From positions 4,706 through 68,705 of the forward strand of contig JAGVYP010000066.1 of assembly GCA_018303205.1 (NCBI GenBank): a stretch of DNA of 64,000 bases. Direction: 5' to 3'. A program made the translations under genes and the position numbers. Under the pieces are notes generated by a model. It saw only the letters and a list, made by a program, of their open reading frames with translations. It ran no database searches and was not told the DNA's origin. Below, in pieces: positions 9,035 to 39,143 of the stretch. Source of the DNA: Candidatus Woesearchaeota archaeon (GTDB taxonomy: Archaea > Nanobdellota > Nanobdellia > Woesearchaeales > JAGWAF01). The first letter of the stretch is position 1; every line of letters begins with the position of its first letter.

Positions 9035-10284
9035 GGTTGATAATCTCGAATCCTTTCTGCCAACAACTTAGTACCTTGTCTAATACCATCTAAATCCATG
9101 TTTCCTGTAGAGACTCTTAACAAATGTCTGTGAGAGGTTCTTACTCTTTGTTCAGGATCATAGTTTTCGAAAGATCCTGTTAGGACATGGGGATGTTGAT
9201 CATATAAAAAAACAGTTAACTCTCCAGCATGTATAGCTCTAGGTAATTCTAATACTGAAATCATATGACTCGGAGAAGGCCTTCTTATCCTCATTTCAGG
9301 ACAAGCTTGTCCTAATTCACTATCCAATACGTCATTTCTTCTTTCTAATTCTTTCAATGCAGGTTGTTCACCGTAGATAAATATATTTTCTACAGTTCTT
9401 GCCAGTCCAAAAGGAGGAGGAGACACTCTCGGAACACTTTGTTTTACTTTCCGATTTCCTTCTGGAACAAGAATATAAGAAAGATATCCACAAGGTTTAT
9501 CCCCAAAACGCTTAGATAAGCCTTCAACAACATAAGGCATGGTAAACCATCTGCTTAAAGACTCTCTTTGTCCAAGAGGCTGATTACCCCTCATCACATC
9601 ATCTATAATAATTTCAACACCATATTTTAATGCAATAGTATCAATCTCTCTCGCTGCTGCTTCAGAAATACGATAAAGTAATGGATTAACAGGATCAACA
9701 AGAACCAAAGCTTTTATTTTCTTCTTTGGTGCAATCTTCCTAAAATTATCAACTAATTCTTGCTCTGTACTTGCCTCAAAATAAGCAAAATCATATTCCT
9801 GATTAGCAAAACCATCTAAGTTCCAAAAATGCCAATTAGGCAAAGGCATTGCAATTTGTCCACTTCTTCCAGCAAAGGCACGAAAAAGAAGGTCTATAGA
9901 TTGCCTGGTAGGTATCGGCAAAACAAAAACATCTTCCTCAGAACCATTCCATTCTGTTTCTCTTTTGCGCATATCACTAAAAACTTTTCTTATCTCACCA
10001 ACATCTTCTGTTTCCCCCGTTTGAACACCCACTCCTATTTCATCTCTTACAGAATCAAGAATCCCTTCTGGAATATATTTTGTAGCATTAAAATTATAAT
10101 GCGCTGTACCCAAATCATAAGTCACACAAGGACTATGACTCCTCTGACCACTTTGTATAATGATTAATCCTGATGATTCTTGAATTTCTATTAGTGGTGA
10201 TCCAGAACCACTTAAGAGAATATCTATTAGCGTTATTTCTATAGGTTTTTTCCTTCTCCTTTCTTCACTCATCACTCTGTTCAA
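9031..10284 (-). CDS. class I/II aminotransferase-fold protein, tandem paralog
   Basis: Same length (417 aa) and motif set (LVLVDPVNPLLYRI; LSKRFGDKPCGYLSYILVP). 4-nt overlap with the downstream paralog. Confidence 0.5.
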   Translation of the reverse strand: MNRVMSEERRRKKPIEITLIDILLSGSGSPLIEIQESSGLIIIQSGQRSHSPCVTYDLGTAHYNFNATKYIPEGILDSVRDEIGVGVQTGETEDVGEIRKVFSDMRKRETEWNGSEEDVFVLPIPTRQSIDLLFRAFAGRSGQIAMPLPNWHFWNLDGFANQEYDFAYFEASTEQELVDNFRKIAPKKKIKALVLVDPVNPLLYRISEAAAREIDTIALKYGVEIIIDDVMRGNQPLGQRESLSRWFTMPYVVEGLSKRFGDKPCGYLSYILVPEGNRKVKQSVPRVSPPPFGLARTVENIFIYGEQPALKELERRNDVLDSELGQACPEMRIRRPSPSHMISVLELPRAIHAGELTVFLYDQHPHVLTGSFENYDPEQRVRTSHRHLLRVSTGNMDLDGIRQGTKLLAERIRDYQP

Positions 10285-10416
10285 TTGCCTATTTTTATAA
10301 AAGTAAGCTTTTCTAGGAGAAGGGATATCACTCTACAACTTCTTTTATCTTTTTCCTTGGAAATCTAAGCCTAAAAATAAGAAAAACATTTAAACTCCTG
10401 CCTTTTGCTTTAGAAC

Positions 10417-11010
10417 ATGAAAACAAAACCTCCCAGAACTGAAAGAAAGAAAAGAACAGGATGGTATATTACTCTTTTCATAGCTGGAGTTATGGTACTC
10501 AGTATTTTTGGCATTATAAACAATCCTGATCAAGCACAAAGCTATACTTATCAAGAATACACCTTTACCTATAACCAAAGAGATTTTCAATATGATACTA
10601 AAATCAATGACAAAACCGTTAAGTTTACCTTTCTTCCTCAAGACGTAGAATCACTTTCACTCCAAGATATCACACAACTTAAAGATACTAACTCTTTTTT
10701 GATGACCTATGACCCTACTGATCTCTATGCTGAAACGCTGGGAAGCATACAATACCTTTTAGAAACAGAACTTTATGATCATAAGAACATTATCGTACAG
10801 CGAGGCTTAGTCAATGCAACAGGGTACAGCTTGCCTGAAGTAACCTGTGCAACTGCAACGCCCCAGAATCAAGTCTTACTCTTTAGAACAGCAAACCAAA
10901 CCTCTTTTACACATGAAAACTTCTGCTTTATCATTGAAGGTAGTACCCAAACTGATCTTATCCAGTATTTTGACAGATTACGCTATGCCCTCTATGGAGT
11001 TATTGCATGA
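10417..11010 (+). CDS. membrane-anchored extracellular protein, Cys-motif family (paralog 1 of 3)
   Basis: N-terminal basic segment plus TM helix. C-terminal domain carries the conserved pattern C(T/A)…(V/I).(L/F)L…I.L…NC…G…A..R..(L/W)Y shared with 11007..11729 and 20712..21443. Confidence 0.5.
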   Translation: MKTKPPRTERKKRTGWYITLFIAGVMVLSIFGIINNPDQAQSYTYQEYTFTYNQRDFQYDTKINDKTVKFTFLPQDVESLSLQDITQLKDTNSFLMTYDPTDLYAETLGSIQYLLETELYDHKNIIVQRGLVNATGYSLPEVTCATATPQNQVLLFRTANQTSFTHENFCFIIEGSTQTDLIQYFDRLRYALYGVIA

Positions 11011-11729
11011 AAGACATTGAAAAAGTAGGAAAACTTCCCTTCACCAGAAAAACTATGCATGAAATGCTGGGAGAGAAACCTGAGGAAAAAGAAGCAGCAC
11101 CAAAAACTACTCAACCTATCAAAGAAGATAAGGCAAAAGAACAAAAACAAGAACGCATCATCTTCTGGACCGTCATAGGAATCATTGCAATTTTCGCATT
11201 CTTTCTGCTCTGGAAACTCTTTATTCCTGTGCAAGACGGAGAAGGCACTGAGTATGTTATTTATAACGATAATTATTTCACCAAAGAAGGTTTGTTCTGG
11301 GTTACCCAATGTGTGAGGAATGACACAGTTTATAATCTTCCTTTTCGTTATAATCCCTATGAAGTACTTGATGTCAAATTAGAAGGTATTTTAGATGAAC
11401 GTTTTCACCAAGGAAGAATTTACATTACCCATGACCCCGCAGAACATAATCTCTCCTATGTTGCTATTTCAGCTATTGCCTTTTCTGAGAGCATGGTCAG
11501 AGCATTTAATATCATGCCTGTTGCAGCATGCACAAAACAAGAAACAGAGGGATGCATTGACAGACCTATCATTGATTGTACTGCTCAAAATGCCTCTGTG
11601 ATTTACCTGCGCGATGCTGCACCCACACGTATTATTTTGAATGGTAACTGCATGACTGTGCAAGGTGAAAAAGAAGAATTACTTCGCGCAACAGATCGTG
11701 TTTTATTGCGATGGTATAAAATTTTATGA
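11007..11729 (+). CDS. membrane-anchored extracellular protein, Cys-motif family (paralog 2 of 3)
   Basis: TM anchor (IIFWTVIGIIAIFAFFLLW). C-terminal AACTKQETEGCIDRPIIDCT…NGNCMTVQGEKEELLRATDRVLLRWY aligns with the 20712 protein. 4-nt overlap with the upstream paralog. Confidence 0.55.
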   Translation: MKDIEKVGKLPFTRKTMHEMLGEKPEEKEAAPKTTQPIKEDKAKEQKQERIIFWTVIGIIAIFAFFLLWKLFIPVQDGEGTEYVIYNDNYFTKEGLFWVTQCVRNDTVYNLPFRYNPYEVLDVKLEGILDERFHQGRIYITHDPAEHNLSYVAISAIAFSESMVRAFNIMPVAACTKQETEGCIDRPIIDCTAQNASVIYLRDAAPTRIILNGNCMTVQGEKEELLRATDRVLLRWYKIL

Positions 11730-12325
11730 CACCCCACTATTTTTCCCAGCATCAAACTTCTTCTTATCGCGAACAGGAATTTTCAGCTGTGCTTCACGGA
11801 AATACCCTTACCTTTCTTACCGCTTCAGGAGTTTTTTCTTTGAAAAAAATAGACAAGGGATCTGCATTATTAATAGAATATTCCCAGATTCCAGAACAAG
11901 CAAAAACCATCCTTGATCTTGGTTGCGGGTATGGAGCAGTAGGCATTGCACTCGCAAAAGCATTTCCTGAAAAAGAAGTGCTCATGAATGATGTGAATGA
12001 GCGTGCAGTATTTCTTTGCCAGAAAAACATTAAGAAAAACAATCTTGAAAACGCAAAAGTTGTTATCAGCGACGGATTTGAAAAAATAAACAAAAACTTT
12101 GATGTTATCTTACTGAATCCTCCTCAAACAGCAGGAAAAAAAGTGTGTGAAAAATTAATGGAGGAATCTTTTCATCATCTCAATGAAAAGGGAACATTGC
12201 AAATCGTTGCCAGACATCAAAAAGGAGGAAAGTCCTTAAGTGAACACATGAAAAACGTTTTTGGAAACCTTGATATCCTTGCTAAAGGAGGGGGTTACAG
12301 GGTGTATATAAGTAAGAAAGAATGA
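11726..12325 (+). CDS. class I SAM-dependent methyltransferase (RsmC/small-domain MTase-like)
   Basis: Motif I LDLGCGYGAVGIALA and acidic loop LMNDVNERAV. Confidence 0.7.
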   Translation: MTPHYFSQHQTSSYREQEFSAVLHGNTLTFLTASGVFSLKKIDKGSALLIEYSQIPEQAKTILDLGCGYGAVGIALAKAFPEKEVLMNDVNERAVFLCQKNIKKNNLENAKVVISDGFEKINKNFDVILLNPPQTAGKKVCEKLMEESFHHLNEKGTLQIVARHQKGGKSLSEHMKNVFGNLDILAKGGGYRVYISKKE

Positions 12326-12332
12326 TATAACG

Positions 12333-12902
12333 TTATTTTTGAATTTGTATTTCTCCTTTTTTTATTATCATCTTTGTAACAGAAGGCGCATCTTTATTGT
12401 TGTAGGAAGTAATACTTGCTATGTTCAGAGAGGTTCCCACTGGAAAGATGCTTTCTTTTCCGCTATGCTCATGCAGATGGCCGTGCACATGAAGCATATT
12501 TTTATTTTTTGTTTCTTCTAACATCTTTGTTATCTTTGCATCTCCCACATGACCAACTCCTTCAACCCAATCTTGGTCAGTTTCAGACAAGGGAGGTCCA
12601 TGTGTTACAAAAATCAGAGGTTCGTTTTGTTTTTGAAAGAAAGTAATTTTCTCTTGTGTTTCTTGATACTCTTTCTCTTCTAACGTAAATCCTTCTTTGG
12701 TAATGAATTGTTCATCATGATATCCTCTCAATGCTACCAGATTAACACCTTCAAGATCTGCATCATACAAATCAAAAACTAAAGGATATCTTTCTTGTAA
12801 TGCAGCTATTCCAGAAAAATAAACCTCTTGTTCTTCATGATTTCCAGGAATCACATATATCGGAATTCCTAGTTCTGCAAAAGGGGTAATGCCTTCAATC
12901 AT
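12333..12902 (-). CDS. calcineurin-like metallophosphoesterase
   Basis: Motifs GNHE, VTHGPP, HVHGHLHE. Confidence 0.75.
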   Translation of the reverse strand: MIEGITPFAELGIPIYVIPGNHEEQEVYFSGIAALQERYPLVFDLYDADLEGVNLVALRGYHDEQFITKEGFTLEEKEYQETQEKITFFQKQNEPLIFVTHGPPLSETDQDWVEGVGHVGDAKITKMLEETKNKNMLHVHGHLHEHSGKESIFPVGTSLNIASITSYNNKDAPSVTKMIIKKGEIQIQK

Positions 12903-12918
12903 CTCTTTTTTATTATCC

Positions 12919-13068
12919 TTACTCTCTGGATACAGGGATTGAAGGCATTACCCCTTTTTCGCTCACGATACCTAGGGTTATAGGCTCTTCTTCTCCACAT
13001 CCTATAAGAATAAAAACGAAAAAAAAGAGTACTACCATCTTGTTTATGTTCTTCATTTTTTTGAACAT
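12919..13068 (-). CDS. candidate small lipoprotein (49 aa)
   Basis: Hand translation MFKKMKNINKMVVLFFFVFILIGCGEEEPITLGIVSEKGVMPSIPVSRE. Signal peptide with a lipobox-like LIGC. Below the ORF-track size cutoff. Confidence 0.3.
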   Translation of the reverse strand: MFKKMKNINKMVVLFFFVFILIGCGEEEPITLGIVSEKGVMPSIPVSRE

Positions 13069-13125
13069 GAGGGTTCTTCTTAAAAACCTTTTATTTTTCT
13101 ATATAGAAAATATTGTTTTGAAGAA

Positions 13126-13140
13126 CACTTTTATATATAA
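13126..13140 (+). promoter_or_regulatory. candidate archaeal TATA box (CTTTTATATATAA) about 25 nt upstream of the 13160 ATG (near-leaderless)
   Basis: AT-rich TATA-like octamer at the appropriate distance from the signal-peptide-containing start. Confidence 0.35.
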
Positions 13141-13159
13141 ACTCCTGCTCAACACTCCT

Positions 13160-13900
13160 ATGAAATCCTTCATCCTTATTTTCCTTGGCCTTCTGATCTT
13201 CTTAGCAGCTTGTACTACAGAAACTATACCTACAGAAACTACGCAAAATACCACATCAGAACAATCAGACCAAGAAGCTCCTGCTATTCTCCAGCCTAAC
13301 CAAATACTGGTCTGTGATGGAGAACATCAAGTAGTAGAAGGATTCCAATGCGTTTGTGAGCAAGGCTATAAAGTTTGTAACAAACAATGTGTTCCCGAAT
13401 CCCAATGTTGCACCAATTCTGATTGTCCAAGCGGTATTTGCACCAATGGTGCTTGCACTAATCCTTGTGAAAACACCTTTTGTCCTATCAACCAAGTTTG
13501 TGATCCGAACACAGGAAAATGCGGATGTACAACAGGAAACAAATACTGCAACAAACAAGACAGGTGCATTGCACTCAGCCAATGTTGTGACAATGCAGAT
13601 TGCAACAGAGCAAGAGAAGGAAGAAGATGCGTTGAAATCACTACTTCTGTTAATGTTTGCGTCAATGATGGCGCATTTTGCAAATGGGTTAGGCTTGATA
13701 CTCCTGCAAATGTTGCTCTCAACCAAACAGGATTTACCATTAAAGTAGAAGAACTCTATGATAGCAATCTTCTCGATGTAACAATCAATGATGTTCTTTT
13801 TGAAAGGCAAGCAGTGCCTGGAACAGTTATTGTCGGTGCTGATGAAATCACCTTTTCAGAATTTAAACTTTCTGGCGGGCAATGCCAAGAGTTTTCCTAG
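13160..13900 (+). CDS. cysteine-rich secreted lipoprotein with EGF/granulin-like repeated Cys modules
   Basis: Likely true start at 13160 (MKSFILIFLGLLIFLAACTTE, lipobox). About 40 Cys in repeated C-x-C…C-N…C modules (…QCVPESQCCTNSDCPSGICTNGACTNPCENTFCPINQVCDPNTGKCGC…). The ORF-track start at 13040 is probably too far upstream. Confidence 0.6.
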   Translation: MKSFILIFLGLLIFLAACTTETIPTETTQNTTSEQSDQEAPAILQPNQILVCDGEHQVVEGFQCVCEQGYKVCNKQCVPESQCCTNSDCPSGICTNGACTNPCENTFCPINQVCDPNTGKCGCTTGNKYCNKQDRCIALSQCCDNADCNRAREGRRCVEITTSVNVCVNDGAFCKWVRLDTPANVALNQTGFTIKVEELYDSNLLDVTINDVLFERQAVPGTVIVGADEITFSEFKLSGGQCQEFS

Positions 13901-13940
13901 AATTGTCCGTTATTTTTTACTTTTATTTCTATCTTTTTTC

Positions 13941-14040
13941 AGGTCATCACGGAGGTTTACTCTTCGTCCCTCAGAGCTCCTGCGAAATCAATCCTGCATG
14001 AATCGGATTGATTTCTGGTTTTACTCCAAGGTGATGACCT
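13941..14040 (+). repeat. Structured repeat element, copy B (perfect 10-bp inverted repeat AGGTCATCAC/GTGATGACCT)
   Basis: GGAGG…[gaaatcaatcc TGCATGAATCG ggattgatttc]…CTCCAA core. Lies between convergent genes. Confidence 0.75.
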
Positions 14041-14073
14041 TGGTATATTGAATGCTCAACAAATATCTTTCTT

Positions 14074-15704
14074 CTACTCAACCTTCTTACAAGAACACGA
14101 ACAAACATTTTCTTCATCTAAGGAACTTTTTTCATAAGCCAAGAAACGATCATTGCATTTTTCCCTACAGCTCTGTTCACAAAGAGCTTTGTGTTTTGTT
14201 GCTTCATCAACTTCCTCTTCCTTGATATCATACACATACACAGAATACCCCGGCATTGCAATCGGAGTTTTCTCCCGTAGCCAAGCATAACACTCAGCAT
14301 AATACGGCTCCAAACCAATCAATGCATTAATGCTAATAACAGCAATACCAGGCAATGGCAAACATCCTAACTCATGCGCTTTGATACCATAATATTCTAT
14401 AGGCTCATGCCCAAAATACTTGATATTCACTTCCTCAATACCCTCTTTTTTCAAATACGAAACAACCCTCTTCAAGTCCTGTCCCCAATCAAGATTAGAA
14501 TCAAGCAATACTTCTTTTCCCTGTTCAGGACCTCCAGCAAAGACATTGAAATATGCAAGATACTGCGGCATAATCAAAAGATGAGAAAGTACAAAACCCA
14601 AAATAAGAAGCGCCATGCAACAGGAAAAAATATTCTTTTTCATTTTCTCTTTTATCTCTACATTCACAACTTTACTCACAAAAACGATAAGAAAAGGATA
14701 TACAGGCAGGATATGACGTACACCAATATTAATGTTGTTCATCATAAAAAAAACAAGATAAGCAAAAAAAGGAATGATCAAGAAAAATTCTTTTTTCCAA
14801 GATAAGGAAGGAATTTTTTTCCAAAAAAGAACAACTAAGATAAGGAGAGCAAAAAGCGCAGGAGGAGTCTTAAAAAACACTCTGAATGAAGCATGACATC
14901 TTTCAGTCCCACAAAAAACGCTTCAAAATGTACAAATTGGTAAACAGCAAACACAAAAAAAAGTGCGACGATAAAACTAGGAAAAAACCACTTTATTTTT
15001 TTCAAATACCCTTTTATTCCCTCACTTTTATCCTCTTTTAAGAAAAACCAGAGAAATACCAATAGTATTACAACGGGAAAAATAAGAATCCCAGAAAATT
15101 TACTTGCGAGACATCCACCCAAAGCAGTGCCAAGCAATACTGCTCGTTGCCAAGAAGGCTGCTGAAGATATCGCCATAAAAGATAGACACTCAAAAAGAA
15201 AAATAAGGTAACACCCAGATCAGTTGTCACATACTTACTATGTGCAAGGATATTAGGCTCTAATGCAATAAAAAATGCTGCTAATAATCCTGCTTTGACT
15301 CCATACAAACTTCGTGCGAAAAGAAATACGATAAAACATAAAAAAAGTCCTGCAAGAAGAATAGGCATTCTCGCCCAAAAAACAAGTTGTTCTTTTTTTT
15401 CAGGATTATTCAGAAAGAAAAATCTTCTTCCAAACTCCCACTGATCAGCTGTCTTCCAACTTGTTCCTGTATCATATTCAGGATCCAAGAAAAGCATGGG
15501 AAAACCTGCAAGAAGTTTCATCAAAGGAGGATGCTCAGGATTCAGACGATAATCTTGCAATTTCCAATAGGTAAATCCTGCAGGGATATGAGCAAATTCA
15601 TCAATCGTAAGAGAATCCCCCTTCATACTCCCTATTCCAAGCGAAAACATGAGCAGTAAGATGATCGCTAAAATTCCATACTGATACTTTTCAACAAAGC
15701 TCAT
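14074..15704 (-). pseudogene. ArnT/PMT-family GT-C glycosyltransferase split into two frames (N-part 14835..15704, C-part 14074..14880) at an A6/T6 homopolymer (14872-14877)
   Basis: N-part carries DEFAH…HPPLMK (the DE…(K/H)PPL hallmark of COG1807 GT-C enzymes). Both frames are open across 14837-14922. Adding a single T to the T6 run fuses them (…LHSECFFKTPPALFALL…) into a GT-C protein of about 555 aa. Confidence 0.6.
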
Positions 15705-15728
15705 GAAAAAAAGAAGAAAAGATCCTAT

Positions 15729-16430
15729 TTATGCTTTTCTATGTTTCCAACGCATTTCTAAAATGTCCTTAAACATCTTCAAAGAGTCTTTTAATGGGTT
15801 TACTTTGCTTTCTCGAGAATTTTTCCAGACCACCGGAACTTCCTTGATGTCATACCCAAGACGGGATGCTAAAAAAAGTGCTTCCACATCAAAACTAAAA
15901 CCATTCAGATACTGTCTTTTGAAAATGTCCTGAGCAGCTTTCTTTGAGATCAACTTAAAACCACACTGTGTATCTTTAATGCCCCATAATCCTAAAGCTT
16001 GTACCATCTTATTACATGTTTTACCAAGCAAAACGCGATACAAAGGCTGTCTTTCTACAATAAGAGATCCTCGCAATGCTCGTGACCCAATAATAACCTT
16101 ATATGTTGCTTGCTGTTCTTTTAATTTTTCAAACTCTTCTATAGGAGTAGACAAGTCAGCATCGCTAAACAAGATCCAAGAGTGTTTGCTTTCCAACATA
16201 CCTCTTCTAATGCTATACCCTTTTCCCTTATTCTGCTCATTTCTGAGAATCTTGATGTTTGCGTTGTGAAGCTGTTGCACTTTCTCTATTGTTTTATCTG
16301 TGCTTCCATCATCAATAATAAGAATTTCAAATTGTTTCGTATTTTTTTCCAGATACGGAATAACCTTCTCAAGCGTTGCTTGAATTCTTCTTTCTTCATT
16401 ATAACACGGTATGACCACAGAAAGGTTCAT
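15729..16430 (-). CDS. GT2 glycosyltransferase, dolichol-phosphate mannose/glucose synthase-like (Dpm1/AglD-like)
   Basis: MNLSVVIPCYNEERRI…ILIIDDGSTDKT…FSDADL: canonical GT2 DxD/DAD pattern. Confidence 0.8.
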   Translation of the reverse strand: MNLSVVIPCYNEERRIQATLEKVIPYLEKNTKQFEILIIDDGSTDKTIEKVQQLHNANIKILRNEQNKGKGYSIRRGMLESKHSWILFSDADLSTPIEEFEKLKEQQATYKVIIGSRALRGSLIVERQPLYRVLLGKTCNKMVQALGLWGIKDTQCGFKLISKKAAQDIFKRQYLNGFSFDVEALFLASRLGYDIKEVPVVWKNSRESKVNPLKDSLKMFKDILEMRWKHRKA

Positions 16431-16760
16431 ACGCTGAGAAAATTCTCCATGGTTTATAAAGTTATGTTCTCTATGAGGTATCTTATCACCCGTATAACTT
16501 CTTTTTCAAGAAGAGATCTTTTTTTTATCGTCATCATTTTTTCTCTTTTATCATAATCATTTTCTTGTCTCTAAAACTCTCTTTTATTTTTCTTTGAAAC
16601 ACAAAAAGTTCCACCATTCTTTGAATGTTATTTTTTTATAAAAAAAGATAGGAAAAGTAGAGAGAAGAAAAAGAGAAAAATAAAAGGAAAATAATTCTTT
16701 ACCTTCCTTTGTACCTTCTAAAAGCGTACTTTTTTAAATGGGATTATTTTCCCTTACTCT

Positions 16761-18032
16761 ATGGCCACGATAAGTCTCTGCATTATTGCTAAAAATGAGG
16801 GAAAACGCCTTGATCACTTTCTTACCCATCATGAACCACTTGTTGATGAAATTATCCTCGCAGATACCGGAAGCACGGACAACACCAAAAAAATAGCTGG
16901 CAAGCATTCCAAAGTAACCCTCTTCGATATTCCTTGGGAAGATGATTTTAGCAAAGCAAGAAATGAAACTTTAAAACGTGCAACAAAAGACTGGATCCTT
17001 ATTCTTGACCCTGACGAGGAAATTGCGGTTGTTGACTTTAAAAAAATACGAAGAGCAACAAATGTAGAGAAAGCAGACGCCTATATGCTCCAACAAGTAA
17101 CCCCTGTTCTTGAACAAAGACCCTCCTATCTCGTATCCTCTACCCCCGTACAAAATATTCTTGTGCGATTATTTAGAAACCATCAAGATATTAGCTTTCG
17201 TTACAGAGTACACGAAATTGTAGAATCTGTTCTCGTTGAAAAGAAAAAAAACATATTCTCTCTTCCTGTCATTATTCATCATCAAGGATTACAACAAGAA
17301 AAAAAACTATTAGAAGCAAAACATGAGTATTACAAAAAGCTTATCGCTCTGGAACTTAAAGAACTACCTCAAGATCCCAAACCCTGGTTTGAAATGGGTT
17401 CTTACTATTATTTTCGTGAAAAATATAAAGATGCACTTCCCTATTTTGAAAAGGCTGCCCAACTCAGCGTACGAACAGCAAAACCCTGGGACTTTCTAGG
17501 ACATACCTACTATAAACTTCATCAGGATGAAAAAGCATTTGATGCCTATAGACACGGAATCTTAGTCTCACAAGATGTCGCAGGTGATTTTCGCAATCTC
17601 GCATATTTTTTCTTACGAGAAAAAAAAGAACAACTGGCTCAACAAGCATTTGGCGAATCACTCAAACATGACCCTACAGATATCCCCACGCTTAACAATG
17701 CAGCATTCCTTTTTTTAAGACATCATCAACAAGAAAAAGCAGAACAACTCTTAAAAAAAGCGCTTCAGGAAGCGAAAAATAAAAACATCAAAGCACCCTT
17801 ACAGACTTTTACCAACCTTGCTATGCTTTATCTCGAACAAAGAAGAAATGAAGATGCAGAAGCCATGTTCAAACAAGGATTACAACATCAACATCCCTCA
17901 GCATATATCAATCTTGCCCAGTTTTATGAAAAAACCGGAAGAAAACAAGAAGCACTTACAATCTTACAAGAAGCAGAAAAAAAAGGAATCAAAGATGAAA
18001 CCTTACAAAAAATAAAAGAGGAACTCTCATGA
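16761..18032 (+). CDS. GT2 glycosyltransferase domain fused to C-terminal TPR repeats
   Basis: N-terminus ISLCIIAKNEGKRLD…ILADTGSTDNTKKIA…DPDE (GT2). C-terminal half has about 6 TPR-like repeats. Confidence 0.7.
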   Translation: MATISLCIIAKNEGKRLDHFLTHHEPLVDEIILADTGSTDNTKKIAGKHSKVTLFDIPWEDDFSKARNETLKRATKDWILILDPDEEIAVVDFKKIRRATNVEKADAYMLQQVTPVLEQRPSYLVSSTPVQNILVRLFRNHQDISFRYRVHEIVESVLVEKKKNIFSLPVIIHHQGLQQEKKLLEAKHEYYKKLIALELKELPQDPKPWFEMGSYYYFREKYKDALPYFEKAAQLSVRTAKPWDFLGHTYYKLHQDEKAFDAYRHGILVSQDVAGDFRNLAYFFLREKKEQLAQQAFGESLKHDPTDIPTLNNAAFLFLRHHQQEKAEQLLKKALQEAKNKNIKAPLQTFTNLAMLYLEQRRNEDAEAMFKQGLQHQHPSAYINLAQFYEKTGRKQEALTILQEAEKKGIKDETLQKIKEELS

Positions 18033-18421
18033 ACGAATCTACCGAAGCATTTAAACAAGGAATCTTCTCCTTAGAAAAAAAAAGCTATGCAGATGCTAGT
18101 GCTTACTTTGAAAAAGCAGTTGATCTCAACCCACAAAATCTAGATCATCATTACTATCTTGCATTTTCCTATGCACGACAAGGCAAGTTTCCTGTTGCCA
18201 TGAGAATGATCAGAAGAGCATTAACTTTGTCAAAGGAAAATCTGAAAACGTACAATCTGCAAGAACCCTATGCTGCCTTTTTTGTCTTAATAGGAGCAAT
18301 TCATGAAGAACAAGGTGTCTTTCCTAAAGCTGTGCGCGCTTATGAAAAAGCCATGAAACTGGGAACTCCCAAAAAAGACATTTTACAAAAAAGAATAGAC
18401 CACATGAAAGGGAAATACTAG
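18029..18421 (+). CDS. small TPR-repeat protein
   Basis: 130 aa with 3 TPR-like units (…YADASAYFEKAVDLNPQNLDHHYYLAFSY…). 4-nt overlap with the upstream GT2-TPR gene. Confidence 0.55.
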   Translation: MNESTEAFKQGIFSLEKKSYADASAYFEKAVDLNPQNLDHHYYLAFSYARQGKFPVAMRMIRRALTLSKENLKTYNLQEPYAAFFVLIGAIHEEQGVFPKAVRAYEKAMKLGTPKKDILQKRIDHMKGKY

Positions 18422-18533
18422 CATTATTCTTCTTTTTTTATACCTTTTATTTACTACACTTTTAAAAAATACACGTAACTCTACTCCCAGAGAAACCATA
18501 ACACATAAAAAGGGAGACTTTCTTCTTTTTGCT

Positions 18534-19979
18534 ATGACACTCAGTGTTTGTTTTCTGGTCAAGAACAAGGCTCAAAGGCTCGAGCATAGTCTGGGCTCTA
18601 TAAAGGGATTTGCAGACGAAATTATTGTCGTAGACACAGGAAGCACGGACTCCACAAAAACCGTAGCCTTACAGGCAGGTGCAAAGGTTATTGCTCACAA
18701 ATGGCATGACGACTATGCTGATGCTAAAAATGCAGCTTTAGCTGTAGCTTCAGGATCTTGGATTCTCTTTTTAAAAGCAGGAGAAACCCTTGCTGAAGTT
18801 GACAAAGAAAAAATTCTCAAAAAAATGCAACAAAAAGATGTTGCAGGATATGTTCTTGAAAGAAGAATGTACACCAGTAACAAAGACCATATGCGTTTTA
18901 TAGCATCAACAGGAACCTATGATGAAGAAAGAGGATATGCAGGATATCTTATTTTTCCTGTGCTTTCCCTCTTTAGAAATATGGATGGCGTTCAATTTGA
19001 AGGGAAGGTCTTCGAAGATGTCAAAGATAGCATTTTCAGAAAGAAAAAAGGCATTAAAGTAACAGACATTATTACCCATTACGTCGATGTAGAGGAACAT
19101 GATCATAAAAAACAACAAGAACGCATTGAACGCTATGCCAAGATCTGTCAAAAAGCAATGAAGGACGATCCACAAAATCCTCAGTATCCTTATGAACTTG
19201 GGCATATTTACAAAGTACAAGGAAACTTTGAAAAAGCAATTCCCTTATTCTTGAAAACAAAAGAACTTGGAAAATACAAACAACCTGAAGCTGAATTAGG
19301 AGACATTTACTTCAGACAAGGAAAAATGCTTGAAGCTCTTGACCTCTACGAAGAAGCCTTAAGAAAATATCCTGCGTATATTCCTACGTATCTTCAACTC
19401 GGAATTATTTATACGAAAAGAAAACGCTTTAAAGATGCTGTAGAAGTTTACAAAAAAGCATTAGAACGCGATCCTAAAAATCAAGTCGCATACCAAAACT
19501 TATCGGCTACACTCTTACAAGCACAAAATATCATGGGTGCAATGAAAATTCTCGATCTCGCTTATAAAGAAACCAAACTTGAAAAATTCAAAACCATCCT
19601 TGAAGATTTAAAAAACAAATTAGAAAAAAATGAAAAAATAAAAAACTTACTCAAAGAAGGAAAAACAGAAGAAGCAGGGCAACTGTTGAAAAATGATGTT
19701 GCACAAAATCCCGAAAGTATTCTTGCCCTTACCAACTTAGGAGCATTTTATTTTGGACAAAAACAATACGAAAAAGTGGTAGATTTGCTTTCACCTGTTC
19801 TTGAGAAAAATACGAGTACTGCAAATCATATCTTAAACATGTACAACAACGTAGCAACAGCCTATACCCATCTTGACGATACCAAATCAGCAATCAAAGT
19901 GCTCAAACAAGCACTTAAATTGAATCCACCTAACCAAGAATTCTTTGAAAAAAGAATAGAAGAGATCAAAGAGAAGTAA
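18534..19979 (+). CDS. GT2 glycosyltransferase domain fused to C-terminal TPR repeats (paralog)
   Basis: N-terminus LSVCFLVKNKAQRLE…IVVDTGSTDSTKTVA (GT2). C-terminus has multiple TPRs (…AIPLFLKTKELGKYKQPEAELGDIYFRQGKMLEALDLYEEALRKYP…). Confidence 0.7.
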   Translation: MTLSVCFLVKNKAQRLEHSLGSIKGFADEIIVVDTGSTDSTKTVALQAGAKVIAHKWHDDYADAKNAALAVASGSWILFLKAGETLAEVDKEKILKKMQQKDVAGYVLERRMYTSNKDHMRFIASTGTYDEERGYAGYLIFPVLSLFRNMDGVQFEGKVFEDVKDSIFRKKKGIKVTDIITHYVDVEEHDHKKQQERIERYAKICQKAMKDDPQNPQYPYELGHIYKVQGNFEKAIPLFLKTKELGKYKQPEAELGDIYFRQGKMLEALDLYEEALRKYPAYIPTYLQLGIIYTKRKRFKDAVEVYKKALERDPKNQVAYQNLSATLLQAQNIMGAMKILDLAYKETKLEKFKTILEDLKNKLEKNEKIKNLLKEGKTEEAGQLLKNDVAQNPESILALTNLGAFYFGQKQYEKVVDLLSPVLEKNTSTANHILNMYNNVATAYTHLDDTKSAIKVLKQALKLNPPNQEFFEKRIEEIKEK

Positions 19980-20014
19980 GACTTTTATAGTAGGATTCTT
20001 TACTTTCTAAAAAA

Positions 20015-20698
20015 GTGGTGATATTCATACAGAAGTTAGCATTTTTCTTTTGGTGTTTAGCGATTATCGCGCTACTTCTTTCAGCACACCTTTTTGTGCA
20101 AACCTTTTATTCCCTAGGATTTCTTTTCTTCTTCATCGCGTTTTTTCTTACACCACCCTTCTTCACTTTTCTGAGAAAAAAAAATATCCATCCTTCAGTT
20201 CCACTTATTTCAGTGCTTTTTCTCTTCATTCTTTTCACTAGTCCCTCTTATTTTCCAAACGCTTCTATCACCTCAGCGGTGGTCCTAGAACAAAATAAAG
20301 AACAAACTGAACTTGAATATCCAGAATCTTCATCTGCAACGTATGTCATCAAAGAATATCCCGGAAGTACAGTCATTCATCGATCTTCACCGCTTCAAGA
20401 AACTGAAAAAAAAGTCTATGTTCCTAAAAAAGAAATCCAAGTAAAAATTACTGATAAAGCTTTTATTCCCCAAAATATTACCATATCACGTGGCACTATG
20501 GTCATTTGGACTAATACAGATCCACGATTGCAAATTATTCATATTGTGAACACTACAGGAGGCTATACCAGCATTGCACGCAGTGGTCGTCTTGAGTTCG
20601 GAGACAGTTTTAACATGCGTTTTGATGTTCCTGGAGAATACCCTTACCGTGGTTTATTATTGAAAGCACCCGAAGGACATATCAGCGTAACACCATAA
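20015..20698 (+). CDS. membrane protein with C-terminal cupredoxin-like domain lacking obvious Cu ligands
   Basis: N-terminal TM helices. C-terminus …AFIPQNITISRGTMVIWTNTDPRLQIIHIVN… resembles a plastocyanin-like beta-sandwich but has no Cys ligand. Confidence 0.35.
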   Translation: MVIFIQKLAFFFWCLAIIALLLSAHLFVQTFYSLGFLFFFIAFFLTPPFFTFLRKKNIHPSVPLISVLFLFILFTSPSYFPNASITSAVVLEQNKEQTELEYPESSSATYVIKEYPGSTVIHRSSPLQETEKKVYVPKKEIQVKITDKAFIPQNITISRGTMVIWTNTDPRLQIIHIVNTTGGYTSIARSGRLEFGDSFNMRFDVPGEYPYRGLLLKAPEGHISVTP

Positions 20699-20711
20699 AA
20701 CATAAATACTC

Positions 20712-21443
20712 TTGTTCTTTCTTCTTTTTATGAAAACCATATTCCTGATCTCTCTCCTTCTTCTCTTTTTTTTAGTTTCCTGTATTTCTGATAAAGAAAA
20801 AACTATTTCTGTTGAAGAAAAATCAGAGATAAAACAAGCTCCCCAAGAACCTCTTGAAAAAAAAGAAATAGTTCCAGAAGAAAAAATAGATACACCTCCA
20901 ACTTATGTTAAAGTAGAAAATACAACACTGCAAATTATTGCGCCACCTACTCCTGAAAAAAAGGAAGTCATTGTAAAAGGAAACATTTTTACGTATGAAC
21001 CTTCACTTAAAGTATGGAGAACGTATCTTTCACGAGAAGGAATGAAACAAAACTTAACCTTTCGCTATACCCCCGAACAAGTAAAAAACATCGTTGTGAC
21101 GGGAACATTGAACAGTACTTTTGACAAAAGAAAAATTTTTATTACTTTTGATCCTTTGAATACGCATGACCTTGCCTTTGTCGCCTTAGCTGCTCAAGAA
21201 CTCTCTAGTCATCTCGCAGGATCATTTCAACGCATTCCTCTTTCTGCCTGTACTCAAGAAGCTGAGTCTTGCACAGACCTTGTTACGTGTGACGACAAAG
21301 ACAAAGCAGTGATTTTTCTGAATAACCAACCCGGTCCTCTTATTACACTTGATCACAATTGCTTAGTCCTTACAGGACAAGGAGAAGACATCATGAAAGC
21401 TGCAGAACGCATTATCTTCGACTGGTATGGGTATTATAAGTAA
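20712..21443 (+). CDS. lipoprotein-anchored extracellular protein, Cys-motif family (paralog 3 of 3)
   Basis: Lipobox LVSC. C-terminal SACTQEAESCTDLVTCDDKDKAVIFLNN…LDHNCLVLTGQGEDIMKAAERIIFDWY is homologous to the 11007 and 10417 proteins. Confidence 0.55.
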   Translation: MFFLLFMKTIFLISLLLLFFLVSCISDKEKTISVEEKSEIKQAPQEPLEKKEIVPEEKIDTPPTYVKVENTTLQIIAPPTPEKKEVIVKGNIFTYEPSLKVWRTYLSREGMKQNLTFRYTPEQVKNIVVTGTLNSTFDKRKIFITFDPLNTHDLAFVALAAQELSSHLAGSFQRIPLSACTQEAESCTDLVTCDDKDKAVIFLNNQPGPLITLDHNCLVLTGQGEDIMKAAERIIFDWYGYYK

Positions 21444-21960
21444 TCTTTTTATACATCTTCTTACTTACAAGATTATGAAGAAATTTAGCCCAGCAGAGAT
21501 ACAAGGGACAAGAGATTATTTTAGTGGTAAGGGGTTTCCTGTAGTATCTGCTACTGTTTTAGGTCATACTTTTTCCTATTTTGTACTTCCTCCTTCTCTA
21601 GAAACTAAGTTGCCTGATTTTGTTTTTCGTTGTACAGGAGATCCAGATAGGGAATAGGTACTAGGTATTTCGGATAGCGTGAAAGCAGAGTGGAGAAAAT
21701 TTGCCGTATTTCATGAGTATGCAGAATTTGTCGTTCTTGGTGTTGATGCTCCTGACAGATGTACTCATGCTTTGTCTTCAGAGATAACTGCTGTGCAAAG
21801 AGAAATGCTTGAAACTGAAAGAGTACCTTACTTTAGAATGAGGCTTGCCTTTTTCAGAAATTTAGTTCCTTATTGTAGTGCACAACCTGAACTGTATTCA
21901 CCTACAGATCTTGCGCAATTCAGAGCAAATGTTACTACGCTTGAAGGTTTAGTAAAATAA
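21427..21960 (+). pseudogene. hypothetical protein interrupted by a single in-frame TAG (21655-21657); ORFs 21427..21657 and 21679..21960 share one frame
   Basis: (21679-21427)=252, so both are in the same frame. The only stop is TAG at 21655. Local GC is higher than the surroundings. Confidence 0.3.
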
Positions 21961-21968
21961 TAAAAAAT

Positions 21969-22406
21969 CTATGCAAATCCTTGTACAGTGATGTGAAAAT
22001 TCAAATTCTTTCCAGCAAGCGGATGATTTAAATCCAAAACAACCGTGTTCTCTCTTATTTCTCTGATCGTTGCAAATAAGCGCTGTCCTTGAGGAGAAAC
22101 TAAAGTTAAGATTACTCCTTCTCTTAACGGAGCTTCTTTGGGTATTTTGTCTCTAGGAACTTCTTGCTTAAGCTCTTCTTTAGGCAATCCATATCCTTCC
22201 TCTGCTTTGAGAGAAATCTCTTTAGACTCTCCTTCTTTCATGCCGAGTATTGCCTCTTCAAATTTTTTCAAGAGTATTCCTTTTCCTATTTCTATCACTA
22301 AAACTTCTTGTCCTTCATTGCTATCAAACACGGTTTTGTCATCAAAATAACCTTTATAGAAAATCTTTACCTTGTCTCCCTCTTGTACCGTTCTTTGCAT
22401 TGCCAT
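21969..22406 (-). CDS. FKBP-type peptidyl-prolyl cis-trans isomerase (SlyD-like)
   Basis: MAMQRTVQEGDKVKIFYKGYFDDKTVFDS…: FKBP fold with an IF-domain-like insertion. Confidence 0.8.
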   Translation of the reverse strand: MAMQRTVQEGDKVKIFYKGYFDDKTVFDSNEGQEVLVIEIGKGILLKKFEEAILGMKEGESKEISLKAEEGYGLPKEELKQEVPRDKIPKEAPLREGVILTLVSPQGQRLFATIREIRENTVVLDLNHPLAGKNLNFHITVQGFA

Positions 22407-22569
22407 TTTTTTAGGGGAATATTTACTCTATATAAGTGTTTGCCCACTTTGTAATCTTCATGAATTCTTCTTTTATGTTTTCTTCTTTTTTTTTTAAGAA
22501 AAGAAAAATAGACATCAAAGAATATGGCATCTTAACAACATTTAAATAACAGAACTCTCTCAATAGACT

Positions 22570-23136
22570 ATGGCATTGATAACATTCTCAGAACTTCTTG
22601 ATCTTATTATCATGACTGTTGCAGTAGGTTTTATTTTCATGGATTTCTTTCCTCCACCCTCTAAAAAGGCTTACGATCCATTGCAAAAAATGAGCTCTTT
22701 TAATTGGCATGCTCTCTGGTTCGCGGTGATGATCACAGCTCCTTCAGTGATCTTTCATGAACTTGCTCACAAATTTGTAGCAATAAGCATGGGATTACAA
22801 GCAACATTCCACGCTGCTTATATGTGGTTAGGCATTGGATTAGTATTAAAACTCTTAAACACAGGATTTATCTTCTTTGTTCCAGGATATGTTTCTACTC
22901 TTGGGGCAACGCAAACGCAGCACGCAGTCATTGCTCTTGCAGGACCTGCTCTCAATCTTGTTCTTTTTTGCATCGCATGGATTGTCATTAAAACTACCAA
23001 AAAATTATCTCACAAACAACATCTTTTCTGGTCTATTACCAAACGCATTAATGGATTTCTTTTTGTTTTCAACATGATTCCTATACCAGGATTTGATGGA
23101 AGCCACGTGTTGAGAGGAATTTTAACGCTCTTCTGA
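22570..23136 (+). CDS. membrane zinc metalloprotease (site-2 protease/M50-like)
   Basis: HExxH (HELAHKF) embedded in a TM helix, multiple TM segments. Confidence 0.55.
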   Translation: MALITFSELLDLIIMTVAVGFIFMDFFPPPSKKAYDPLQKMSSFNWHALWFAVMITAPSVIFHELAHKFVAISMGLQATFHAAYMWLGIGLVLKLLNTGFIFFVPGYVSTLGATQTQHAVIALAGPALNLVLFCIAWIVIKTTKKLSHKQHLFWSITKRINGFLFVFNMIPIPGFDGSHVLRGILTLF

Positions 23137-23146
23137 ATTTATCACA

Positions 23147-23160
23147 CGAAACCTTTATAT
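23147..23160 (+). promoter_or_regulatory. candidate BRE/TATA (AAACCTTTATATAC) about 30 nt upstream of the pyrG GTG start
   Basis: TATA-like octamer preceded by a purine-rich BRE-like element at archaeal promoter spacing. Confidence 0.4.
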
Positions 23161-23188
23161 ACATTCTCCTTTTTCTTCATATCCCAGA

Positions 23189-24817
23189 GTGAAAGCAAAA
23201 TTTATCGTTGTTACTGGGGGTGTACTCTCAGGTCTGGGAAAAGGCGTGGTTACGAGTTCTATAGGAAATCTGCTCAAAGCGCAAGGCTACAAAGTAACTG
23301 CTATCAAATTAGACCCTTACATTAATGTGGATGCAGGCACCATGAGGCCAACAGAGCATGGCGAAGTCTGGGTGACTGAAGACGGAGGAGAAACAGACCA
23401 GGATTTGGGCAATTATGAACGTTTTCTTGATACGAATGTCATGAAAAATCATAGCATCACTACAGGACAAGTGTACAACACGGTTATTCAAAAAGAAAGA
23501 AACCTCGAATATAATGGGCAATGTGTTGAAGTTATTCCCCACATTCCTTTAGAAATTAAAAGACGCATTTTAGAAGTTACCAAACAAACACAAGCAGATT
23601 TTGTTTTATTAGAAGTTGGTGGAACCGTAGGAGATTATCAGAGCATCCTTTACTTAGAAGCTATGCGCGCACTCAAGCGAGAATTAAAAGACTTGCTCTA
23701 TGTCCATGTCGTGTACCTTCCTGTGCCAGGAAACATCGGTGAAATGAAAACAAAACCAGCACAACACTCCATACGCTTTCTCAATGAAGCAGGTATACAA
23801 CCTGATTATATCATTGCACGATCTACAAAACCCATTGATGATACGAGAAGAGAAAAATTTTCTTTCTTATGCAACGTAGATACTTCCTCAGTCTTTGCAG
23901 CACCTGATGTAGACAATATTTACCGTATTCCCCTTGTCTTTGAACAACAAGGTTTGGATAAGCATATCCTGAACAAATTTGGTTTACGCTATAAAAAAAA
24001 TAAGAACAAACTCTGGAAATCACTCATAAAAAAAATTAACATGCTCAAACAAGAAGTAAACATAGGCATCATTGGAAAATATTTTGATGTGGGAGATTTC
24101 ACCCTAGAAGATTCTTATATTTCAGTTATCGAAGCAGTAAAACACGCAGCTTGGGCCAATAATGTCAAGGCAAAAATACAATGGATTAATGCAAAAGATT
24201 TCGAAAAAGATCCGAAAAAAATAGAAACCTTACAACAGTATCATGGCCTTATCGTTCCTGGAGGCTTTGGTTCTTCAGGTGTAGAAGGTAAAATAAAAGC
24301 AGTACAATATGCTCGAGAACATAAGATTCCCTATCTAGGCTTATGTTATGGCTTGCAAATGGCAGTTATTGAGTTTGCAAGAAACGTCTGTGGTTTAAAA
24401 GATGCGCATACGACAGAGTTTAATCCTCACACAAAAAATCCTGTGGTTATCATCCTTGAAGGACAGAAAAAATTGCTTGAACAAAAACAATATGGTGCTT
24501 CCATGCGCCTGGGAACCTATGAAGCGTTATTAAAAAAAGAGAGTATGGTATCCAAACTATATAAAAGCAGCCACGCAAAAGAACGTCATAGACATAGATA
24601 TGAAGTCAATCCTGAATATCATTCTACCTTAGAACAACATGGTCTGATGCTCAGCGGTATGTCACCCGATGGCAAGCTTGTTGAATACATCGAATTACCC
24701 CATCATCCTTTTTTTGTTGCAACACAAGCACATCCTGAATTCACTTCAAGGCCTTTACGACCCAATCCTTTATTCTTTGGTTTTTTAGAAGCCGCGAAGA
24801 AAAAATTAAAAGAATAG
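23189..24817 (+). CDS. pyrG: CTP synthase
   Basis: N-terminal synthetase domain (FIVVTGGVLSGLGKG) and C-terminal glutamine amidotransferase (GLCYGLQ, catalytic Cys). 542 aa. GTG start. Confidence 0.9.
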   Translation: MKAKFIVVTGGVLSGLGKGVVTSSIGNLLKAQGYKVTAIKLDPYINVDAGTMRPTEHGEVWVTEDGGETDQDLGNYERFLDTNVMKNHSITTGQVYNTVIQKERNLEYNGQCVEVIPHIPLEIKRRILEVTKQTQADFVLLEVGGTVGDYQSILYLEAMRALKRELKDLLYVHVVYLPVPGNIGEMKTKPAQHSIRFLNEAGIQPDYIIARSTKPIDDTRREKFSFLCNVDTSSVFAAPDVDNIYRIPLVFEQQGLDKHILNKFGLRYKKNKNKLWKSLIKKINMLKQEVNIGIIGKYFDVGDFTLEDSYISVIEAVKHAAWANNVKAKIQWINAKDFEKDPKKIETLQQYHGLIVPGGFGSSGVEGKIKAVQYAREHKIPYLGLCYGLQMAVIEFARNVCGLKDAHTTEFNPHTKNPVVIILEGQKKLLEQKQYGASMRLGTYEALLKKESMVSKLYKSSHAKERHRHRYEVNPEYHSTLEQHGLMLSGMSPDGKLVEYIELPHHPFFVATQAHPEFTSRPLRPNPLFFGFLEAAKKKLKE

Positions 24818-25035
24818 TGATTGCCATTTCTTTTCTTGATTTCTAAATCCGTATTCTTTCCTGAGTTTTTTAATATGGTTTTGCAATGCATCAGCTTCTT
24901 TATCTGAACATAATCTTTTACCTTCCAAAATCTCTTTCCAAAATACGTTTGGGTTTCCTTTCAATTCTCTTTTTGTCATTTTTCAATATCTTCTCTCAAG
25001 GATAAATATATAAATCTATAAGCTTTTACTCATTT

Positions 25036-25599
25036 ATGAACCCAGCACTCCTTATCATAGACATGCAAAATGATTTTGTAAAAGAAAATGCTATTATGGA
25101 AGTTCCAGGAATTAGAAATCATCTTTTAAAATTCAAAAATTTTATAGTTCAATGTAGAAAAAAAGGAGTTCTTACCATTTATACAAGACATTGTTTTGAT
25201 CCAAAAAAAAATGCTATTGAGCTACTCTTATTTCCTCAGTTGAAAAAAGAAGGTTTACGAAGCGGAACCAAAGGCTGGCAAATCATAGATGAACTTAAAC
25301 CAGAAAAAAATGATATCTTCATTGATAAAACACGTTATGATGCTTTCTTTAAAACAAATTTGAAAACAATATTAGAAAAAAATAAAGTTGATACAGTTCT
25401 TATTACAGGTACAATGACTAATGTCTGTTGTGAATCTACAGCCAGAACGGCAATGCAGCATGATTACCATGTCCTTTTTTGTTCAGATCTTACATTCTGT
25501 GGCGATCAAGAAGATCAAAAAGCAACATTAAAAATAATAAAATCAAGTTTTGGAAAAGTAATGACTTCTCAAGAAATACTAACAGAGATAAAAAAATGA
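25036..25599 (+). CDS. isochorismatase-family cysteine hydrolase
   Basis: LLIIDMQNDF… and a catalytic Cys context (GTMTNVCCEST). Confidence 0.75.
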   Translation: MNPALLIIDMQNDFVKENAIMEVPGIRNHLLKFKNFIVQCRKKGVLTIYTRHCFDPKKNAIELLLFPQLKKEGLRSGTKGWQIIDELKPEKNDIFIDKTRYDAFFKTNLKTILEKNKVDTVLITGTMTNVCCESTARTAMQHDYHVLFCSDLTFCGDQEDQKATLKIIKSSFGKVMTSQEILTEIKK

Positions 25600-26252
25600 A
25601 TACCCAGGATATTCTCAAACAAACACAAGAGTACGTAAGAAAAGCATTAGAAAAAGACTCTTCTGGTCATGATTGGTGGCATATTTATAGAGTTTGGAAA
25701 AATGCATTACACATTGCAAAAGAGGAAAAAGCAGATCTGTTTATCGTACAAATGGCAGCTTTGCTCCATGACATCGGAGATCCTAAACTTCATCAGGGTG
25801 ATACTACTGTAGCTCCTCGTCTTATTACCTCCTGGCTTGACCAGATAGGTTTGGAAAAAGAGAAACAAAAAGAAATTTTGTATATCATTGAAAACATGTC
25901 TTTTGCAAGTTCATTAGAAAAAAAAGAAATAAAAAAAACAAAAGAGTTTTGCATCGTCCAGGATGCTGATCGTTTGGATGCTCTGGGCGCAATAGGCATT
26001 GCACGTTGTTTTGCATACACTGGCCATAAAGGAAGACTGATGCACGACCCTGAAAGAAAACCAAGAAAAACATTAACAAAAGAAGAGTATAGAAAAACTG
26101 AAACACCTGCAATTCATCACTTCTATGAAAAATTATTACTTTTAAAAGACAAGATGAACACAGAAACTGCAAAAAAAATAGCAGAGCAAAGACACGCTTT
26201 CATGGAAAAGTATTTAGCACAATTTTTTAAAGAATGGGATTGCAAAGCCTAG
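25596..26252 (+). CDS. HD-domain phosphohydrolase
   Basis: HD…D motif (AALLHDIGD, …QDADRLDALGA). Likely start ATG 25596 overlapping the upstream stop (ATGA); the ORF-track start at 25479 is inside the previous gene. Confidence 0.75.
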   Translation: MNTQDILKQTQEYVRKALEKDSSGHDWWHIYRVWKNALHIAKEEKADLFIVQMAALLHDIGDPKLHQGDTTVAPRLITSWLDQIGLEKEKQKEILYIIENMSFASSLEKKEIKKTKEFCIVQDADRLDALGAIGIARCFAYTGHKGRLMHDPERKPRKTLTKEEYRKTETPAIHHFYEKLLLLKDKMNTETAKKIAEQRHAFMEKYLAQFFKEWDCKA

Positions 26253-27548: not shown

Positions 27549-27603
27549 TCTTTTTTTATAGTTTGTCTATACTCTATTATAAATTTATACGAAATCTTTA
27601 CAA

Positions 27604-29121: not shown

Positions 29122-29195
29122 AGCTAAGAAGGTTCATCCGGACTTTTTATCTTTTGTGACAAAAAAACACAAAATATATAAAAATAAGTACTTTT

Positions 29196-29879: not shown

Positions 29880-30039
29880 AAAATTTCCGAATCTTTCGAG
29901 TCCATATGCGAGTCCATTTGTCATAGTTTTATTTTACTGATTTGAAGCTTGATCTGATGCAGCTATTCTCTTTTTTAGACACGCACTCCAAAACCTCAAG
30001 CTTTATAAAAGGAGCCATCCCCCATTCCCAGGGGATCAT

Positions 30040-32587: not shown

Positions 32588-32618
32588 TCTTTTATACCAC
32601 TTCTGTTTACGACGAGGT

Positions 32619-34723: not shown

Positions 34724-34924
34724 GAATGCTTTTCCTTGTGCCTAACTTTCCAAATTTTTAGTAATTTTTATGTTTTTTTCTATCACGTTATTTTTTCAAG
34801 TATTTTTATAATAATAATTTTATCGTCTTTATAATTCGTTTCTTTTAGAATTTTAGTTTGTGTTTTTTTTTGTAAAAATAATAATAAACGGAAAAAATAA
34901 CATTTGTATTCCGCCTAACCTTTT

Positions 34925-35459: not shown

Positions 35460-35604
35460 TACTCAATTCAAAGATTGCAAGAATTTAAAAACATTCTGTT
35501 TTTAAGTTTTTTTTAAAGATTTTGTTTGTGTTCATTTTGTATTTCCTATCCCTCTTCTTTCATCTTTTAACACTGAAAAAAACCGGAGTTTCTAAACAGT
35601 CCTT

Positions 35605-39142: not shown

Positions 39143-39143
39143 G

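Follow-up and report, generated by a model that had tools for sequence, protein, structure and literature searches.

Two neighbouring open reading frames on the minus strand of a Candidatus Woesearchaeota contig raise the question of why a membrane glycosyltransferase of the GT-C type should be encoded in two pieces. The window, by which we mean the whole 64,000-nt stretch of contig JAGVYP010000066.1 that was analyzed, carries the N-terminal fragment at 14835..15704 (minus strand; 289 aa) and the C-terminal fragment at 14074..14880 (minus strand; 268 aa), as well as Nop and fibrillarin genes, consistent with an archaeon. An earlier note on this DNA had taken the two ORFs for halves of one GT-C enzyme, divided by a frameshift in a homopolymer that reads A6 on the plus strand and T6 on the coding strand (14872..14877, minus-strand gene). 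The run and the ORF coordinates were confirmed in the sequence, and the two ORFs are indeed parts of one enzyme, as full-length homologues span both in a single polypeptide. The N-terminal fragment consists of native residues 1–275 followed by 14 out-of-frame residues and a TAG codon at 14835–14837, and in the C-terminal fragment the native residues 300–566 (FFKTPP...) start at 14877. Around the run, the coding strand reads ...CAT TCA GAG TGT TTT TTA AGA..., and the frame of the C-terminal part is open upstream to a stop at 14923–14925. The two frames do overlap as open frames, as the earlier note had said, although over 14838–14922 rather than 14837–14922. Adding one T to the run fuses them into a protein of 543 aa (...HSECFFKTPPALFALL...), not of about 555 aa as had been estimated.

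Both fragments have entered the databases as separate proteins. The N-terminal one is an exact match to NCBI record MBS3128873.1, 'glycosyltransferase family 39 protein [Candidatus Woesearchaeota archaeon]', and the C-terminal part is represented by MBS3128872.1 (J4410_07055), a hypothetical protein of 222 aa on a 69,199-bp contig. In exact protein look-ups, the 289-aa and 222-aa products were on record nowhere else. A search with the fused sequence gave 3,366 homologues at E values up to 0.001 out of 8,000 scored candidates, and nearly all of the best 120 are single polypeptides of 530–630 aa covering both parts. Orthologues split at the same boundary, which would have spoken for two separate proteins, did not turn up: none is split, and 118 of the best 120 homologues are at least 500 aa long, the other two being one truncated at the end of its contig and one that is probably chimeric. 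A 335-aa protein (P0067; contig L006, 3001–4008) was considered as a naturally short homologue and rejected, as it matches the GT-C enzyme up to residue 258 and then continues in a DUF819-like tail; only 19 nt separate this unrelated tail from the contig end, which makes a chimeric contig probable. The homologue search shows this type of GT-C to be widespread in DPANN archaea and CPR bacteria. Among GTDB genomes, relatives of the intact protein were limited to one locus at 32% identity, which was uninformative. The best match to the fused sequence is a protein of 565 aa (P0001), and its cluster mate of 566 aa (P0123) is encoded by an intact gene on contig L001 (ENA ERZ27254845, k141_955429), which served as the reference allele.

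We characterized the intact enzyme by profile and structure searches. The window-encoded protein scored 43.9–47.1 bits with Pfam PMT (PF02366; cut-off 22.7) and 38.4–40.3 bits with PMT_2 (PF13231; cut-off 26.1), thus passing both gathering thresholds for GT-C membership; the N-terminal part alone passed them as well, with 47.1 and 40.3 bits. An AlphaFold model of P0123, made from an alignment of 53 homologues that are 32–98% identical to it, had a mean pLDDT of 92.8 and a pTM of 0.92. Model helices and hydropathy together indicate 11 transmembrane helices (TM), a long first external loop carrying D35–E36, both invariant in the 53 homologues, and a C-terminal alpha/beta domain at about residues 415–566. 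The predicted structure thus has the multi-pass membrane fold and the acidic motif in the first external loop that are expected of a GT-C enzyme. According to this layout, TM1–7, the D35–E36 motif and HPPLMK reside in the N-terminal fragment, where the earlier note had placed its DEFAH/HPPLMK motif, and TM8–11 and an extracytoplasmic Cys-rich C-terminal domain reside in the C-terminal fragment.

Foldseek matched the model, with a probability of 1.0, to ArnT, Pmt4, STT3/PglB/AglB and ALG enzymes, the best PDB matches being ArnT (5f15; E = 9e-8) and Chaetomium Pmt4 (9i5k). By sequence the resemblance is faint: phmmer of P0123 against PDB sequences gave no match, and a profile search reached only Pmt1, Pmt2 and Pmt4, weakly. 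With the protein O-mannosyltransferase (PMT) family (CAZy GT39; yeast Pmt1–Pmt2, 6p25; Chaetomium Pmt4, 9i5k) the enzyme shares Pfam PMT and PMT_2, the GT-C fold, the structural match to Pmt4 and, in the profile search, the alignment of its external-loop-1 DE motif and HPPLxK motif with yeast Pmt1 and Pmt2. It differs from that family in having 566 rather than 750–820 aa, in lacking the MIR and PMT_4TMC modules of the strict eukaryote-type GT39 enzymes (Pfam on the repaired protein gave PMT and PMT_2 only) and in having its own C-terminal domain, with a DSNxDWGQDL motif and a Cys-rich tail, to which no Pfam family corresponds. With ArnT (CAZy GT83; Cupriavidus metallidurans, 5f15 and 5ezm) it shares the best structural match (TM-score about 0.5), a similar size and a gene position after a GT2 gene that could make a lipid-phosphate-sugar donor, as in the ArnC–ArnT pair; however, the sequence identity is 12% and the host is an archaeon without lipid A. 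NCBIfam gave no match to the ArnT equivalog and returned only two far sub-threshold hits, to Agl23 and a pilin-like family. Since neither MIR or PMT_4TMC nor an ArnT equivalog was found, we describe the enzyme as a PMT/ArnT-like GT-C of undefined specificity.

The intact allele locates the break. Over the gene, a nucleotide alignment of the window with L001 contains 10 substitutions and a single 70-nt gap, the sole indel between the two. The gap junction lies at 14878..14880 (minus strand), just upstream of the T6 run, with a placement that is ambiguous by one T in the alignment and its anchored display. At this point L001 reads ...CATTCAGAG, then the 70 nt TTTGGACATGC...CTGTGGCGA (ending GTGGCGA), and then TGTTTTTTAAG.... 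At the protein level, P0001 and P0123 read ...LKDVMLHSE-FGHASFLLGSYSFQGWWYYFPVAM-FFKTPPALF..., and the window jumps from HSE to FFKTPP. Window residues 1–275 are 100% identical to P0123 (tblastn), and the gap removes codons 276–299, that is, 24 residues from F276 to M299. As 70 equals 3n + 1, one added base restores the frame. The run itself is the same length, T6, in the window, in L001 and in two further contigs described below (L007 and L008). Because the intact allele also has T6 and only a 70-bp gap differs at the break, the homopolymer is not the lesion. The GT-C gene is broken by the absence of 70 bases that code for a conserved loop; the earlier description of a split gene is largely right and its homopolymer mechanism wrong. 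Assembly error, one of the causes it had listed, is the probable one, and a one-base change at A6 is excluded.

In the intact allele, neither a direct repeat nor a hairpin fits the end points of the deletion (DNA fold z = 1.39), and the missing 70 nt have only chance matches, of at most 15 nt, elsewhere in the window. The window holds no N characters, so no scaffold gap is visible, and no compensating GT-C paralogue was found in it.

We then examined what the missing residues contribute to the fold. In the alignment of 53 sequences, F276–M299 ranks among the most conserved segments of the family: all sequences share G284 and Y294; G277, G290, W291, F295, A298 and position 299 are kept in at least 80–90% of the sequences, position 299 being F in 48 of the 53; and only one sequence has a gap within the stretch, at a single position. 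In the model, the missing residues span the end of an external helix (261–276), a beta-hairpin (280–287) and the start of a further helix (294–302), which would place the deleted stretch in the external loop between TM7 (about 226–254) and TM8 (305–316). This loop presumably corresponds in position to periplasmic loop 4 of ArnT, which becomes ordered on undecaprenyl phosphate binding.

Contigs from other assemblies show how variable the locus is and where assemblies of it stop. Over 14879..25704, L001 differs from the window by one mismatch in 10,826 nt, with no indel; over 13650..14879 it differs by 10 mismatches. Nine of these substitutions form a patch of 60 nt (14611..14670, minus strand), in which the window, L007, L008 and P0001 stand against the L001 haplotype. 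The patch alters five codons, each with an amino-acid change, in the TM10–TM11 region of the GT-C enzyme, and could be a small recombination tract or reflect diversifying selection. A strain switch exactly at the breakpoint, as a mismatch rate that differs by side might suggest, was considered and rejected, as 9 of the 10 mismatches cluster 209–268 nt from the junction. P0001 represents a third haplotype at the locus; exact look-ups of P0001 and of the GT2 protein of the window returned no record. L004 (ERZ4903137), a 29.7-kb MEGAHIT contig, is 100% identical to window positions 15951..23032 and ends at 15951, within the GT2 gene and beside position 15950, the only single-nucleotide difference between the window and L001 in those 10.8 kb. 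This end point indicates that co-occurring strains probably fragment assemblies at the locus.

Two contigs, L007 (ERZ4903137) and L008 (ERZ27254754), are 100% identical to the window over 12959..14879, including its allele of the patch. Past 14879, both enter the segment that the window lacks, L007 for 68 nt and L008 for 26 nt, and both end there. Since these contigs carry the window haplotype together with the segment, this haplotype also occurs in ungapped form, and the gap lies at a point where other assemblies break. The tip of L007 (5721–5788), which lies within the 70-nt segment, departs from L001 at six positions, all of them C-to-T changes, and looks like an error-rich, low-coverage end rather than a true haplotype. 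A further contig, L010 (ERZ27254845), is 100% identical to 26892..39570. Outside the two lesions (the second is described below), about 25 kb compared, including L004 over 15951..23032, L010 over 26892..39570 and L008 over 9249..12941, contained no indels and two base mismatches, one at 15950 against L001 and one within 9249..12941 against L007; 12.7 kb of this had zero mismatches. An exact 30-mer from the left flank found no match in the JGI and GTDB collections.

The second lesion lies less than 2 kb away, at 12937..12958, and consists of a perfect 22-nt inverted copy of 12879–12900. No chance matches of 22 nt are expected. The last 17 nt of the copy (12942–12958) occupy the place of 106 nt that are present in L007 and L008, and 12937–12958 is thus a fold-back junction. 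It falls in a metallophosphoesterase lipoprotein gene (12333..13068, minus strand; 274 aa), which is intact in L007 and L008 and which the lesion splits into 12333..12902 (189 aa) and 12919..13068 (49 aa). The block between the two lesions (12959..14879; 1.92 kb) is the one to which L007 and L008 are 100% identical, and its flanks are clean in comparison with L004, L008 and L010.

Which event produced the split can be weighed on these data. If the A6/T6 run carried a one-base error or caused programmed slippage, either in transcription or through a –1 ribosomal shift on T_TTT_TTA, the product would be a fusion of about 543 aa, and two features of the window invite this explanation: one extra T fuses the frames, and T_TTT_TTA at 14879–14873 in the frame of the N-terminal part is an X_XXY_YYZ heptamer from which a –1 shift enters the frame of the C-terminal part. 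However, the heptamer stands in that phase because of the 70-bp gap alone, and the run length does not differ from that of the intact allele. Slippage would restore the frame only, leaving a fusion that lacks 24 conserved residues of the TM7–TM8 loop and contains, at its junction, a Cys codon foreign to the native gene, not the restored enzyme that one added base had been thought to yield. Of the marks of a programmed –1 frameshift, the slippery heptamer is present, but a downstream stimulatory structure (z = 0.42; 132 of 200 shuffled sequences folded equally well or better) and conservation in relatives are absent: no relative is split or frameshifted here, and all have one uninterrupted ORF. 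Nor is there a homopolymer indel in the approximately 27 kb compared with other assemblies. We therefore regard slippage as barely credible. It is also very unlikely that template switching or end joining truly produced both lesions in a natural population of Woesearchaeota and so disabled two adjacent envelope genes, with some GT-C product still being made: either a U_UUU_UUA heptamer placed by chance at the deletion junction would let a small fraction of ribosomes shift by –1 and yield a loop-less fusion, or the TM1–7 catalytic module and a fragment of TM8–11 plus the C-terminal domain would act together as a split enzyme.

The choice that matters is between an assembly error and a real deletion. 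We think that the organism probably has one intact 566-aa GT-C gene and that the split is a local assembly error in a metagenome-assembled genome (MAG) contig, with a probability of roughly 0.75. As this would have come about, the locus varies among co-occurring strains and assemblies would break here; the separately assembled 1.92-kb piece would then be joined badly at both ends, with the true intervening sequence left out. At the GT-C end, 70 bp would be lost and the frame shifted; at the other end, 106 bp would be lost and a 17-nt fold-back tip left behind. On the other reading, two separate recent events in one strain would have removed 70 bp from the GT-C gene and exchanged 106 bp of the metallophosphoesterase gene for a templated inverted copy, leaving null alleles of two envelope-related genes. 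Both lesions do stand in a deposited sequence without Ns, and template switching in the cell can also couple a deletion to such an insertion. That the C-terminal part remains an undamaged ORF agrees with a very recent event, and strains differ at the locus, as is common where cell-surface glycosylation is encoded. Against a mis-join, neither breakpoint has a repeat of k-mer length, or any long repeat that would explain an assembler error; the 70-bp gap shows only its one-base (T) ambiguity. But the comparison contigs are otherwise near-identical to the window, and two indels of 70–106 nt within 2 kb, set beside two base differences in about 25 kb, fit normal divergence poorly. Moreover, contigs of the exact window haplotype hold the missing sequence and stop inside it, at what is an assembly break point; the lesions lie at either end of one block, the pattern expected of a misplaced contig; and the deletion allele was found in no other assembly. 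A sample-specific deletion allele is possible, yet on balance we consider a real deletion unlikely. If the split GT-C gene is not an assembly artefact, it is an ordinary recent pseudogene.

Assembly errors of the kind we favor have precedents. In a CPR genome of 1.13 Mb, Chen et al. 2020 (PMC7111523) counted 13 local assembly errors; according to them, such errors are prominent in IDBA-UD assemblies and the wrong gene sequences propagate into databases. As in the errors of Chen et al., short stretches of consensus inside genes are missing or unsupported, the region is strain-variable, and truncated or split protein calls now stand in public databases. The difference is that theirs are normally identified by lacking read support, whereas ours is inferred from independent assemblies. 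IDBA-UD-assembled DPANN MAGs of a kind to which the present one may belong are described in Castelle et al. 2021 (PMC8204110).

Other candidates for split genes in the window did not hold up. SecF and SecD form a normal pair; the overlap of the isochorismatase and HD-domain ORFs comes solely from the extension of starts by the ORF finder; and the EamA/DMT half-genes at 32619–33316, of 118 aa and about 114 aa, overlap by ATGA as a natural pair without a frameshift, and L010 has them called in the same way. Separately, a 505-aa ORF at 27604–29121 (minus strand) combines a thymidylate-synthase-like domain with a C-terminal PterinBD-DUF4346 region, with about 270 N-terminal residues outside both domains.

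The gene neighbourhood bears on what the intact enzyme does. Immediately upstream lies a GT2 glycosyltransferase gene (15729..16430, minus strand; 233 aa; Pfam Glycos_transf_2, 105 bits), and the GT-C gene starts 24 nt downstream of it. The GT-C gene had been said to head a glycosylation cluster; its actual place is second and last in a two-gene minus-strand unit. The GT2 protein aligns from end to end, below threshold, with NCBIfam PpgS and dolichyl-phosphate hexose transferase, and is likely the polyprenyl-phosphate-sugar synthase that partners the GT-C enzyme.

Several further genes surround the pair. Upstream of it and divergent from it are two paralogous GT2-TPR fusions on the plus strand (16761–18032 and 18534–19979), both with a weak, sub-threshold likeness to SunS-type peptide glycosyltransferases, and between them lies a gene for a 130-aa TPR protein. 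On the other side, and convergent with the GT-C gene, 13160–13900 (plus strand) encodes a predicted lipoprotein rich in Cys, with the signal ...FLAAC and numerous CxxC-like spacings. Neither Pfam nor NCBIfam has a family for this protein, which is a possible substrate of glycosylation. The same lipoprotein gene is present at 949–1452 of contig L009 (ENA ERZ27254767), where it is followed by a hexapeptide-repeat (left-handed beta-helix) gene and no GT-C gene, which points either to a strain with a different arrangement of genes or to a contig that is chimeric.

For the records, these results are a data-quality point: MBS3128873.1 (289 aa) and MBS3128872.1 (222 aa) each represent a piece of a single 566-aa enzyme, a one-base 'repair' would create a wrong protein, and the corrected GT-C gene model is 566 aa long, as in P0123 and close to the 565 aa of P0001. 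The adjacent metallophosphoesterase gene is flagged as a second mis-assembled gene. More generally, when a frameshift lies beside a homopolymer, alleles should be compared before the homopolymer is blamed. As for the organism, the GT2 protein would load a sugar onto polyprenyl or dolichyl phosphate on the cytoplasmic side, and the GT-C enzyme, whose external loop 1 carries the Asp-Glu motif and whose TM7–TM8 loop is likewise external, would pass it on to an acceptor outside the membrane. The intact GT2 and GT-C pair would then be an ordinary lipid-phosphate-sugar glycosylation module.
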